A DNA stretch of 64,000 nucleotides from NCBI GenBank assembly GCA_034521815.1, contig JAXHLW010000013.1, positions 1,600,001 through 1,664,000 on the forward strand. The letters run 5' to 3'. Below the pieces are notes generated by a model. That model worked only from the letters and a program-made list of their open reading frames with translations, made no database searches and was not told the origin of the DNA. The stretch comes from Trueperaceae bacterium. Lineage in GTDB: Bacteria; Deinococcota; Deinococci; Deinococcales; Trueperaceae. The stretch's first letter is position 1, and every line of letters starts with the position of its first letter. Positions 57,402 through 61,123 of the stretch are shown piece by piece. A program made the translations under genes and the position numbers.

Positions 57402-59480
57402 ATGGAGTTTCTCGTCATTCTCGTCCCGATCGCCGCGATCGTCGCGCTGTTCGCTGCTTGGCAGCAGGCCAACGGCGTTCTGTCCGCCCCCACCGGCGAC
57501 GCCCGCATGAACGAGATCGCGGACGCCATTCGGCAGGGCGCCAGCGCCTATATGAACCGTCAGTACCGCACGATCTTCGTCGTCGCGCTGATCATCGCCG
57601 CCCTGTTCGCGCTGGTGGCGTACTTTCAGACCGCCCCGCACCAGGCGACGACCTGGTGGTGGACCACGGTCGGCTTCGTCGTGGGTGCGGTCTTCAGCGC
57701 CCTCAGCGGCTACGCCGGCATGAACTTCGCGGTGCGCGCCAACGTCCGGGTCGCTCAAGCCGCGCGTGAGGGGATCCCCGGCGCCCTCAAGATCGCTTTC
57801 GGCGGCGGCGCCGTGTCCGGCCTGGCCGTGGCGGGCCTCGCCCTGCTGGGCGTGTCCGGCTTCTTCGTGCTCTTCGACCTGGTGCTGGGCTTGGCGAACC
57901 CGATCGAGCCGCTGGTGGGCTTCGCGTTCGGCGCCTCGCTGATCAGCCTGTTCGCGCGGGTCGGCGGCGGCATCTACACGAAGGCGGCCGACGTGGGAGC
58001 GGACCTGGTCGGCAAGCTCGAGGCCGGCATCCCCGAGGACGACCCCCGCAACCCGGCCGTGATCGCCGACAACGTCGGCGACAACGTCGGCGACTGCGCC
58101 GGCATGGGCGCGGACCTGTTCGAGACGTACGCCGTGACCGCCATCGGCGCGGTCTTCCTCGGCTACCTCCTGCCGGGAGGGATCGTCTCGGCCCTGGTGA
58201 CGTACCCGCTGGTGCTGGGCGCGATCGCGATCCTGGCGTCCGTCGTCGGGGTGCGTTTCGTCAAGCTGGGCAGCGACGGAAACATCATGGGCGCGCTGAA
58301 CCGCGGCGTGTACACCAGCGCCGCCATCTCGGCGGTCGGCTTCCTGATCGCCTCCGCGCTGATGCTGCAGAATGCGAACGAGCTCCTGGGCACGGGATCG
58401 TGGTTCTCGCTGTTCCTGGCGTCGATGGTCGGCATCGTCGTGACGCTGCTGCTGATGTTCATCACCGAGTACTACACCTCGACCGAGTACGCGCCGGTCC
58501 GGCGCATCGCCAAGGCGTCCGAGACGGGCGCCGCCACGAACATCATCAGCGGCCTGGCGGTCGGCATGCAGTCCACGGCCGCTCCGGTCCTGGTGCTGGC
58601 GTTGGCGACCTTCGGGTCGTTCCTGCTGGGCGGGCTCTACGGGATCGCGGTCGCTGCGGTCGCGATGCTGTCGGTGACCGGGATGGTCGTCGCGATGGAC
58701 ACCTACGGGCCGATCACCGACAACGCCGGCGGGATCGCCGAGATGAGCGAGCTCCCGCACGAGGTCCGCGTCAACACCGACGCCCTGGACGCGGTCGGCA
58801 ACACCACCAAGGCGGTGACGAAGGGGTACGCCGTCGGTTCCGCGGCGCTGGCCGCGCTGGTGCTGTTCGCGGACTACGCCGAGCGGCTGGACCTGGGCGA
58901 GGCGGCGTTCCGGCTGAACGACCCCCTGGTCGTCGTCGGCCTGCTGTTCGGCGCGATGCTGCCGTTCCTGTTCAGCGCGTTCCTGATGGAGTCGGTCGGC
59001 AAGGCCGCCGGCGCGGTGATCGAGGAGGTGCGCCGGCAGTTCCGCGACGTGCCCGGCATCATGGACGGCACCGGCAAGCCCGAGTACGGCAAGGCGGTGG
59101 ACATCGTCACGACCGCCGCCCTGAAGGAGATGGCGGTTCCGGGCCTGATGGCGGTCGTCGCGCCCCTGATCGTCGGCTTCCTGTTCGGCCCGATCGCGCT
59201 CGGAGGACTGCTGATCGGCGTCACCGTCTCGGGTCTGATGATGGCGCTGATGATGTCGAACGGCGGCGGCGCTTGGGACAACGCCAAGAAGTACGTCGAG
59301 GACGGCCACCACGGCGGGCCCGGCTCCGAGGCGCACGCCGCGAGCGTGGTGGGCGACACCGTCGGTGATCCGTACAAGGACACGGCGGGCCCGTCGATCA
59401 ACCCGCTGATCAAGGTGATCAACACCGTGGCGCTCATCTTCGCGGGCCTGATCGCCAGCGTGGGCGGCATCCTGCTCTGA
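57402..59480 (+). CDS. hppA: Membrane-bound pyrophosphatase, K+-independent H+-pumping type
   Basis: [43 protein letters not shown] (Lys form), [10 protein letters not shown]. Confidence 0.95.
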
Positions 59481-59494
59481 GGCGCGGGGCCCTC

Positions 59495-59546
59495 ACGACA
59501 GAGCGATGCGCGCGACCGGAGGTTCGGTCGCGCGCATCGCTGTCGT
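59495..59546 (+). terminator. Long GC hairpin after hppA
   Basis: 17-bp perfect stem 59502-59518 / 59525-59541. No U-tract. Confidence 0.55.
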
Positions 59547-59578
59547 CGTTCTCGTCATCGGCCGTTCTCGTCATCGCT

Positions 59579-59840
59579 GGCCTCGTCCGGCCCCAACTAT
59601 CCATTATACGACGTTTCGCGCCGATGTCATGAAGCGCATTTCGCGGCGCGCGCAGGTCGCTCGGTCGTAGCATCACAGGCGAAAGGGAAAGGAGGCACTT
59701 ATAGACGACGAGATGAACCGATCCTTCAACGGAGTCCCTCGATCCCACTAAAGGCTCACCCGCTCATCCCGAACGGCCCGAACAGGGCGACCGAAGACGG
59801 AGGCGACCGAGCGACAAGAGGAGAATCGAGGGACTTCCGT
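59579..59840 (+). ncRNA. Putative structured RNA unit, copy 1 (promoter, SD, short non-AUG ORF, multibranch fold)
   Basis: TAGCAT 59668-59673, GGAGG 59691-59695, closing stem 59729-59743 / 59825-59840. Core 59752-59812 is 59/61 identical to copy 2. Confidence 0.6.
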
Positions 59841-59879
59841 ATGCGCCCGGCGGGCATCCGTCCGAGGCGCGCGCTCGTT

Positions 59880-59930
59880 TTTGGGGACGCGTGCATCTTT
59901 GGGGCGCGTGCATCTTTGGGCGTGTGCATC
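59880..59930. repeat. Three degenerate 16-18 nt tandem repeats TTTGGG(G)(A)CGYGTGCATC between the two RNA units
   Basis: Read directly from the sequence. Confidence 0.8.
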
Positions 59931-59938
59931 GATGCCGG

Positions 59939-60196
59939 GGCCTTCGCCAGCCCCAATTTGTAATCATACGCCCATCCGGCCCAAAAGGCTGAATCACATC
60001 TCACCGCGCGCCCAGATCGGTGGGGCGTAGCATCACAGGTGAAGGGAGGTTCGCCAATCGAAGAACCGACGAACCAGTCCTTGAACGAAGTTCCTCGATC
60101 CTAGTAGAGGCTCACCCGCTCATCCTGAACGGCCCGAACCGGGCGACCGAAGACGGAGGCGACCGAGCAGGAACAGGAGATCGAGGGGCTTCGTTC
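59939..60196 (+). ncRNA. Putative structured RNA unit, copy 2
   Basis: TAGCAT 60028-60033, GGAGG 60045-60049, 18-bp closing stem 60083-60100 / 60179-60196, core 60108-60168. Confidence 0.6.
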
Positions 60197-60268
60197 GTAC
60201 CCTGATCCCAACGCACGTCGATCTGCACCTTCCACCCCCGCCGACGCGGGGGCGTCGTAGTCTGGCGT

Positions 60269-61123
60269 ATGCAGCTCCGTTCGCTGGCCGGCTGGACCGA
60301 ATCGTGGTTCGTCGAGGAGGTGCGCGACCTCGGCGACGCCGTCGCGTTGCGCTGCCCGACCGAGCCGACCTTTCGTTGGGGCAACGTGCTGATGATTCCG
60401 GACGCCCCCGAGCCCGGTGACCGCGCGTGCCTCGAGGCGCGCTTCGCCGAGGTGTTCGACGACCTGCCGGAGGTGCGGCACGTCACGGTCGGCTGGGACG
60501 ATCCGGAGGGGCGTGAAGGCGACGTCGCCGAGTGGCAAGCCGCGGGCTACGAGATCGACCGAAACGTGACGCGCGTCGCGGAGGCGGCCGATCTGCACGC
60601 CCCCGCGGGGCGCCCCGCCGGTTTCGCCGTCCGTGCCGCCCGCGACGACGACGACTGGCGTCAGGTCGTCGCGCTGCAGGCGTCCGACCCCGGCGACGAG
60701 GAGCCGACGTCCTACCGCGCGTTAATCCTTGGACGTGCCGCGTTTCGCAGACGCCTGGCGGAAGGAGTGCGACCCGATCTGCACGGGGCGTGGTTCCTCG
60801 CGACCCTCCACGGCGTGCCGGTGGGCAGCATGGGCCTGTTCGTCCACCAGCGCGTCGGTCGGTTCCAGTTCGTGCACGTGGCGCCGGAGCACCGCCGAAA
60901 AGGCGTCGCGACGGCCATGGTCCACGCCGTCGCGCGCGAAGGGCTAGGGCGCATGGGGGCGGAGCGCCTGGTGATCGTGGGGGACGAGGGAACGTCCGCC
61001 GACGGCATCTACGCCGCCCTGGGCTTCCGCGCCGTCGAGCGCCTCGTCGGCGCCTGCCGCAAGGAGCCGGTCGGCGCGGAGCGGCAAAGCGTGGCGCCGG
61101 GGATCACGTCCAAGACAGGATGA
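60269..61123 (+). CDS. GNAT family N-acetyltransferase
   Basis: [19 protein letters not shown] acetyl-CoA motif, IYAALGF. Leaderless TAGTCT-N5-ATG. Confidence 0.85.

Follow-up and report, generated by a model that had tools for sequence, protein, structure and literature searches.

A Trueperaceae-specific structured RNA with a conserved Shine-Dalgarno sequence and a putative AUA/AUC-initiated micro-ORF

Introduction

Initiation factor 3 (IF3) rejects the start codons AUA, AUC and AUU (together AUH), and expression of infC rises when IF3 is scarce. In E. coli, the AUU start is reported, from work ascribed to Butler et al. in 1987, to make infC translation inversely dependent on IF3. To our knowledge, conserved non-AUG starts in bacteria are essentially limited to a few protein genes (infC, pcnB and the dnaA of Deinococcus), where they serve IF3-dependent control. 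The Deinococcota are already noted for unusual initiation, including leaderless mRNAs and non-canonical starts. Here we describe a structured RNA of the Trueperaceae whose 5′ end carries a strong Shine-Dalgarno (SD) sequence, an AUH codon at SD distance and a short open reading frame (ORF), referred to below as the micro-ORF. Two tandem copies of this RNA, each of ~150-170 nucleotides (nt), were found by sequence inspection and alignment in a 64,000-nt stretch of the genome of a Trueperaceae bacterium (GCA_034521815.1, contig JAXHLW010000013.1, positions 1,600,001-1,664,000 of the forward strand). This stretch is called the window, all coordinates are window positions, and features lie on the forward strand unless stated otherwise.

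Several described systems combine a short ORF with a structured RNA. Dual-function small RNAs (sRNAs) such as SgrS/SgrT and RNAIII/hld resemble the RNA studied here in being small, apparently having a transcript of their own, and joining a structured part to a short ORF with an SD. Known sRNAs of this type have canonical starts and conserved peptides, and their ORF and RNA functions are usually separable, whereas the RNA described here has a non-AUG start, a peptide without conservation and an ORF that overlaps a structural helix. Leader peptides such as trpL and ermCL offer a second parallel, as translating the short ORF remodels downstream RNA while the peptide itself is secondary. In contrast to these leaders, the present RNA has no conserved downstream gene, no regulatory codon run and no conserved stalling peptide, its start is an AUH codon, and remodelling would act on a conserved RNA domain, not on a plain pair of terminator and antiterminator. 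Our survey of the open-access literature returned no description of a Truepera or Trueperaceae RNA of this kind, and no sRNA with a non-AUG ORF or IF3 sensing.

The comparative evidence presented below indicates that the RNA is a putative new family of ~100 members, specific to the Trueperaceae, with an unusual conserved non-AUG micro-ORF. We judge it somewhat probable, at a little better than even, that rare IF3-sensitive translation of this micro-ORF melts the helix that closes the RNA (P1) and the conserved core that P1 encloses.

Results

Conserved Shine-Dalgarno sequence and AUH codon

In unit 1, the SD AAAGGAGG (59688-59695) is separated by five bases (cactt) from an ATA codon at 59701, which opens a micro-ORF of 16 codons that ends with TAA at 59749-59751 (59701-59751) and translates as IDDEMNRSFNGVPRSH. 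In unit 2, seven bases (ttcgcca) lie between the SD AAGGGAGG (60042-60049) and an ATC codon at 60057. The micro-ORF of unit 2 (60057-60107) has 15 codons, reads IEEPTNQSLNEVPRS and closes with two successive TAG codons at 60102-60104 and 60105-60107. Pairwise alignment of the units gave 83% column identity, with the micro-ORF region free of indels. Thus, the initial annotation was correct in placing an SD and an ATA- or ATC-initiated micro-ORF in both units and in describing the two frames as aligning without indels.

Homologues were compared in a set of 100 sequences from 28 genera, taken from 101 aligned matches; one match with a missing 5′ end was left out. GGAGG is present in 98 of these sequences and GGGGG in the other 2, mostly within AAGGAGGU, which we take to complement the 3′ tail of the 16S rRNA. 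A start codon follows 4-10 nt after the SD in every case, and it is ATA in 56 sequences, ATC in 42, ATT in 2 and ATG in none; for two g23 sequences in which GGAGG is doubled, the spacing was measured from the first GGAGG. Accordingly, an SD with an AUH codon at SD distance, as anticipated from the two units, recurs in 100/100 homologues. Of the 20 genera represented by two or more sequences, 9 show internal variation at the third base of the AUH codon, yet this base is never G. The second codon is GAN (Asp/Glu) in 83/98.

We also considered a GTG further upstream as the true start, since in unit 2 the sequence GTG AAA GGA GGT is in frame with the ATC codon. This candidate was rejected: the corresponding triplet is GCG in unit 1, and in some homologues (G006, G002 and G005) 2-nt deletions take the GTG out of frame.

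The reading frame and its stops

The AUH frame is free of stops over codons 1-11 in all 100 sequences, whereas 70/100 have a stop over the same stretch in the +1 frame and 17/100 in the +2 frame. When the same 33 bases were shuffled with composition preserved, a stop occurred in 37/100 sequences on average, and the minimum over 200 shuffles was 24. Column entropy, anchored on the AUH codon, follows the order position 2 < position 1 < position 3 over codons 3-6. Furthermore, differences counted over codons 2-6 in 40 phylogenetically independent pairs numbered 75, 59 and 98 at codon positions 1, 2 and 3, respectively (chi-square p=0.007).

The frame closes in 97/100 sequences after 11-24 codons, level with the 5′ strand of P1 or shortly beyond it; relative to the core motif AGGCUC, the stops range from 14 nt upstream to 21 nt downstream. 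Given these stop positions, a terminating ribosome must have opened P1. An open frame running to a stop, which the initial annotation had proposed looking for in homologues, was therefore found in nearly all of them. The AUH codon and the core are 42-54 nt apart, a spacing divisible by three in 71/100. AGGCUC is immediately preceded by a triplet, most often UAG, that is a stop in 61/71 of the sequences that have it in frame and in 14/29 of those that have it out of frame. Between 21 nt before and 24 nt after the core position, a stop occurs in the AUH register in 97/100 sequences, as against 66/200 for the two unused registers. Taken register by register, the contrast between used and unused is 70/71 vs 15/29, 10/11 vs 14/89, and 17/18 vs 37/82. 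We regard this tracking as the most telling line of evidence for a real frame, because indels shift the register yet an in-frame stop reappears. Frame-breaking indels were expected by the initial annotation to be absent from a maintained frame. Relative to the core they do occur, in 29/100 sequences, but the frame itself stood, as a different in-frame stop compensates in these members. As an alternative frame measure we tried the distance from the AUH codon to the pairing partner of GGAGG in minimum-free-energy folds, but its values (9-28) were too noisy and the distance to the core was used instead.

Taken together, these patterns point to a frame that is apparently maintained for the position of its two ends rather than for its product. 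All that the family shares in this frame is that it remains open up to its entry into the 5′ strand of P1 and then closes within a short distance. They bear on two other explanations. One is a non-productive decoy or tether, in which the SD docks the RNA on the 30S anti-SD and the AUH codon blocks initiation, so that 30S subunits are sequestered or the core is delivered to them with no translation. An invariant 8-nt SD, the strict avoidance of AUG and a peptide that is not conserved are all what such a decoy would predict. It would leave unexplained, however, the stop-free AUH frame over 11 codons in 100/100, the three-base periodicity and the in-frame stops that track indel-shifted frames, and an SD that is largely paired in the predicted ground state would be a poor design for a sponge. 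We consider a decoy improbable; the frame-tracking stops and the stop-free first 11 codons appear to favour real translation over it.

The other explanation is a micropeptide gene, which would produce a functional acidic peptide of 11-24 residues and use the core only as a 3′ untranslated region, stabiliser or terminator. Conservation of the SD, start, open frame and stop, together with the prevalence of Asp or Glu at the second codon, would fit such a gene. However, neither the sequence nor the length of the peptide is conserved: length and C-terminus vary, and the C-terminal half follows P1 covariation and frame shifts. Conservation of the RNA core far exceeds that of the peptide. A micropeptide gene is thus the least credible of the explanations considered here, and we hold it to be highly improbable.

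Structure of the RNA

P1 brackets the core and takes its 5′ strand from the end of the micro-ORF. In unit 1, this strand lies at ~59729-59746 by fold and covariation, the conserved core (CCACUAAAGGCUC ... CGACCGAGC, by alignments) at 59744-59822, and the 3′ strand of P1 at 59823-59841 by fold, alignment and covariation. In unit 2, the 5′ strand is at 60083-60102 (fold and covariation), and the core with the 3′ strand of P1 extends over 60100-60196 (fold and alignments). Both folds thus bear out the earlier proposal that the last codons form the 5′ arm of the closing stem. Covariation in P1 is extensive: each of its 12 pairs shows changes in both strands, pairing is kept in 95.2% of cells, and 0/500 shuffles reach any of the five measures used. 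The initial annotation had cautioned that conservation of the peptide segment VPRS between the two units might only reflect stem pairing, and this caution proved well founded, as the peptide is not conserved across this covarying helix.

Inside P1, a four-pair GCUC/GAGC helix, which is included in the core coordinates given for unit 1, is unchanged in 97-100 of 100 sequences. The core has invariant internal loops and a rod-like shape, which suggests that it may be a protein-binding scaffold. An insertion of 40-70 nt is present in the apical core, as a variable hairpin P4, in some members (L051 of G115, L130, L133 and L144), with the flanking conserved loops retained.

In its predicted fold, the 5′ domain is a hairpin: GAAGG is paired to a strand rich in U and C (UCCU or UUCU), and next come a GA/A internal loop and then an inner helix whose sequence differs between genera. 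Three or more of the five GGAGG bases take part in pairing in 92/100 minimum-free-energy folds, and the mean pairing probability is 0.69. The purine strand is constant while its partner varies (at one pair, G-C in 50 and G-U in 45), which indicates that GGAGG is kept for its sequence and not just for pairing. Among the 100 predicted hairpins, the AUH codon is single-stranded in 58, base-paired in part in 24 and base-paired throughout in 18; its spacing from GGAGG is kept while its place in the hairpin varies.

With its SD opposite a U/C-rich strand, its G-U pairs and its internal loop, the imperfect 5′ hairpin resembles RNA thermometers such as ROSE and fourU. In contrast to thermometers, the hairpin here is not upstream of a heat-shock or virulence gene, the start is non-canonical and the only ORF is a micro-ORF.

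The start of infC in the same genomes

In the genome that holds the window, infC lies elsewhere (L152, G000:C13:726235-729441), and its frame is preceded by GGAGGTGGAGTTC ATA GCG. The 5′ region of infC was read in 30 of the 61 Trueperaceae genomes with an infC match (L152 and L153-L181). In 30/30 of these, GGAGG is followed after 6-10 nt (8 nt in 25) by ATA (24), ATC (4) or ATT (2). The third base of this start codon favours A or C, with little U, as in the RNA. Since infC starts with GGAGG and an AUH codon in every genome read, the 5′ end of the RNA resembles an IF3-discriminated start site, and the link to IF3 discrimination made in the initial annotation gains strength. These sequences indicate that the Trueperaceae probably use an SD with an AUH codon as an initiation signal, and that the 5′ end of the RNA is a likely copy of this signal, including the rarity of AUU.

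The likeness between infC and the RNA consists of a strong SD at functional spacing and a conserved AUH codon that is never AUG. The two differ in that the frame of the RNA, at 11-24 codons, encodes neither IF3 nor any conserved protein, and in that its start sits on a stand-alone structured RNA, with the SD buried in a hairpin and the frame ending in the closing helix. These findings agree with what has been put forward for relatives: Baudet et al. 2010 (PMC2830850) propose an ATA start for infC in Deinococcus and Thermus. The same study reports, from N-terminal proteomics, that dnaA of Deinococcus deserti starts at ATC (Baudet et al. 2010, PMC2830850). An automatic annotation based on ATG, GTG and TTG would misplace the start of infC in the Trueperaceae.

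Translation weighed against an RNA-level explanation

A number of observations weigh against translation of the micro-ORF. The peptide is not conserved, and the 40 pairs hold 108 nonsynonymous as against 19 synonymous codon changes. Conservation within the frame is largely explicable at the level of RNA, through the anti-SD strand (UCCU/UUCU) and the strand of P1. The frame is shifted relative to the core in the 29 sequences noted above, and 3/100 frames do not close inside the RNA. Counted by genus, the triplet at -3 from the core is a stop in all members, in none, or in some (all-stop/non-stop/mixed) in 15/3/4 genera in frame vs 6/6/1 out of frame; the sequences are related, so Fisher p-values for the association between stop and frame overstate the evidence. 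Few codons in the A-rich loop begin with U, and this scarcity alone makes stops less frequent. In 18/100 sequences (g19, g26 and g41), an in-frame GTG directly precedes the ATC codon, 3 nt after GGAGG, and a canonical start is possible there. Finally, translation could be negligible, given that the SD is mostly paired in predicted folds and that initiation at AUH codons is inefficient.

Several of these points would be accommodated by an element that acts as RNA only. GGAGG would then serve as the purine side of a hairpin that binds protein or RNA, AUMGA would be a motif of its loop, and the frame would be open as a side effect of base composition and common descent, with no ribosome involved. 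The pairing of GGAGG with UCCU/UUCU in a conserved hairpin with a GA/A internal loop, and a third AUH base that is nearly always A or C, agree with this explanation, as do the scarcity of U and the relatedness of the sequences. It fails, on the other hand, to account for an AUH codon that stays 4-10 nt from GGAGG while its place in the hairpin differs, or for the same A/C bias with little U in infC of the same genomes. Nor would it predict stops that track the AUH register, or a purine strand without covariation opposite a partner that varies. We therefore give an RNA-only element a low chance of being correct, and retain occasional translation of the micro-ORF as the preferred reading.

Distribution of the RNA family

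A covariance model search found the RNA in 104/128 Trueperaceae genomes and in 28/36 genera, nearly always as one copy per genome. These tallies, and that of the genomes with an infC match, include one unpublished genome (G131), which gives no sequence to any analysis. BLASTN detected relatives in 9/10 genomes of the window's genus, and a first covariance model was built from 12 of these same-genus relatives. This model, which also gave the 104/128 tally, matched 32/36 Trueperaceae genomes vs 0/114 from the other four families of the order. A second model, built on 101 family-wide matches, matched 11/12 Trueperaceae genomes vs 0/138 other members of the class Deinococci. Five Trueperaceae genomes with no match, including the complete 3.3-Mb genome G032, were searched again at loose thresholds and gave nothing below E=0.1. 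A pattern scan of public genomes returned matches in Novosphingobium (3), Anaerolineae (1) and Deltaproteobacteria (1); these were rejected as chance, as none fits the covariance model at E up to 1.

The RNA did not correspond to a family in Rfam 15. At gathering thresholds, Rfam 15, which includes 6S, Y RNA, riboswitches and ribosomal protein leaders, had 0 matches in the whole window. Positions 59450-60300 gave 12 weak matches to Rfam 15 at E up to 10, none of them on either unit, and 12 diverse homologues searched at E up to 1 left the RNA itself unmatched. Additionally, ARAGORN identified 0 transfer-messenger RNA (tmRNA) or tRNA genes in 59400-60300. The comparison with tmRNA is of interest in that both have a short ORF within a conserved structured RNA and a stop near a helix. 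However, tmRNA has a tRNA-like domain and a conserved tag and lacks an SD and start, whereas the present RNA has an SD and an AUH codon, encodes no conserved peptide and is negative in ARAGORN.

A genome search showed that the two units of the window are the only copies in their own genome. Tandem duplication is also seen in at least one other genome of the same genus, G007, with two copies ~350 nt apart. In G004, two contigs end within copies of the RNA, as expected where an assembly breaks at a repeat. Genomes G029, G027 and G031 each hold two matches at separate loci (in G029, for example, on C1 at 746 kb and 2.40 Mb), from which we conclude that duplication arose more than once in the Trueperaceae.

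Genomic context and transcription

Upstream of unit 1 lies hppA, encoding an H+-translocating pyrophosphatase (57402-59480, from the ORF list, with a Pfam H_PPase match of E=6e-144 on its 3′ part). A homologous hppA is upstream on the same strand in 28/50 loci, at a gap of 141-606 nt in 27 of them and 1176 nt in one. Downstream of unit 2 is a GNAT acetyltransferase ORF (60269-61123, from the ORF list and a domain search), which is not a neighbour in other genera. The genes 3′ of the RNA vary among genera, and at roughly 40% of the 23 loci inspected the downstream gene is encoded on the opposite strand. With neighbours that vary in this way, the RNA is not the leader of a conserved gene.

A TAnnnT box is found 8-15 nt 5′ of GGAGG in 94/99 homologues, at 10-11 nt in 84. 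In the window it takes the form of a -10-like TAGCAT at 59668-59673 in unit 1 and at 60028-60033 in unit 2; the box of unit 1 is farther from the SD than usual because of a 6-nt insertion. The position of this box predicts a likely transcription start ~3-5 nt before the SD. A hairpin CGAGGCGCGCGCUCG followed by TTTTT at 59863-59882, seen in the sequence and in the downstream fold, is the likely terminator of unit 1. Among the 99 homologues, 26 carry four or more consecutive T in the 110 nt that follow the RNA, and the T run directly follows P1 in at least about a dozen members among those listed.

Contigs from the RNA libraries of two studies cover the units, which is a hint of expression only, as DNA may be present. 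These data are assembled contigs from four runs, in which uncovered stretches (e.g. 59485-59558) are uninformative. Unit 2 is represented by short contigs with a word depth of ~90-160 (X1) and ~51 (X2), vs ~3-16 on flanking genes, though such depths cannot rank genes. One point tells against the predicted start: in unit 2, a contig from the RNA libraries continues past the TAGCAT box for ~50-70 nt in the upstream direction. On the whole, the RNA appears to be independently transcribed.

These data also bear on a leader-peptide attenuator, in which P1, the core and U-rich sequence would form a terminator, and translation of the micro-ORF would block it and allow read-through to downstream genes. 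The entry of the ORF into the 5′ strand of a long helix and the T runs found after the RNA in some members are in keeping with attenuation, as is the location of unit 2, 73 nt upstream of the co-directional GNAT gene. In conflict with it, the downstream genes are not conserved and frequently lie on the opposite strand, unit 1 has its own hairpin and T5 followed by another predicted promoter, and most members lack a T run right after P1; moreover, the invariant internal loops of the core would be superfluous for a terminator. An attenuator is, in our estimation, a poor prospect.

Other features of the window and its homologues

A second conserved block lies ~30-66 nt before GGAGG, upstream of TAnnnT (59590-59675 and 59950-60035 in the window; loci L021-L151), for example CTAGGAC-N8-CCCTAC. 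In 20/99 sequences, the region upstream of the RNA holds a palindrome-like TAKG-N8-10-CMTA, with TGAA/TGAC variants in other genera; this block may be a transcription-factor site overlapping the -35 region.

On the minus strand, a near-consensus sigma-70-like promoter (ATGACA-16-TATAAT, 11/12 matches) is found at 59603-59630. It faces away from unit 1, toward the 3′ end of hppA. A block ATcATACG that overlaps it is kept in the genus, so the promoter may give rise to an antisense or divergent transcript.

The stop of hppA is immediately followed by a long perfect hairpin (CGACAGAGCGAUGCGCGCGACC...GGUCGCGCGCAUCGCUGUCG, 59493-59547) with no T run. This hairpin is the source of the sole weak Rfam matches, to miRNA precursor families, which we attribute to chance. 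Right after this hppA terminator hairpin are ~2.4 copies of a 15-nt repeat (CTCGTCATCGGCCG-like, 59551-59587). A 17-nt unit with the consensus TTTGGGGCGCGTGCATC is present three times in tandem (59880-59930), downstream of the likely terminator of unit 1 and ahead of the promoter region of unit 2.

Discussion

In the present study, an SD, an AUH codon and a frame-tracking stop were found together at the 5′ end of a structured RNA, and the arrangement leads us to the following proposal. Initiation on the micro-ORF would normally be rare, with the SD paired in the 5′ hairpin and IF3 rejecting AUH codons, and would depend on opening of this hairpin together with low IF3 stringency. Once initiated, the elongating ribosome would act as a helicase, melting P1 and the invariant GCUC/GAGC helix. 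The ribosome would then terminate in the 5′ half of the core and leave. The core would thereby be unfolded, and so inactivated, reset or exposed, for example to nucleases. By this route the fold of the RNA would be coupled to initiation stringency, in the form of the balance between IF3 and 30S subunits, or to conditions that open the 5′ hairpin.

A further step can be put forward only tentatively, and we think it unlikely to hold in full: the RNA may be a stand-alone sensor of initiation fidelity, with the core as an effector that binds protein or RNA and is switched off or reset only by a ribosome that has initiated at AUA or AUC. If this were true, an sRNA would, by unfolding, relay the balance between IF3 and 30S subunits to another process beyond the infC operon. 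IF3-discriminated initiation would then be an input to riboregulation, beyond the autoregulation of IF3.

In the Trueperaceae, this non-AUG device sits on a family-wide, single-copy RNA, and the length of its frame appears tuned for entry into P1 followed by a stop. The RNA adds to a poorly studied bacterial family an RNA family with strong covariation and a predicted promoter. If translation of the micro-ORF is confirmed, it would provide a clear example from nature of a noncoding RNA remodelled by translation itself, with initiation fidelity as the gate.

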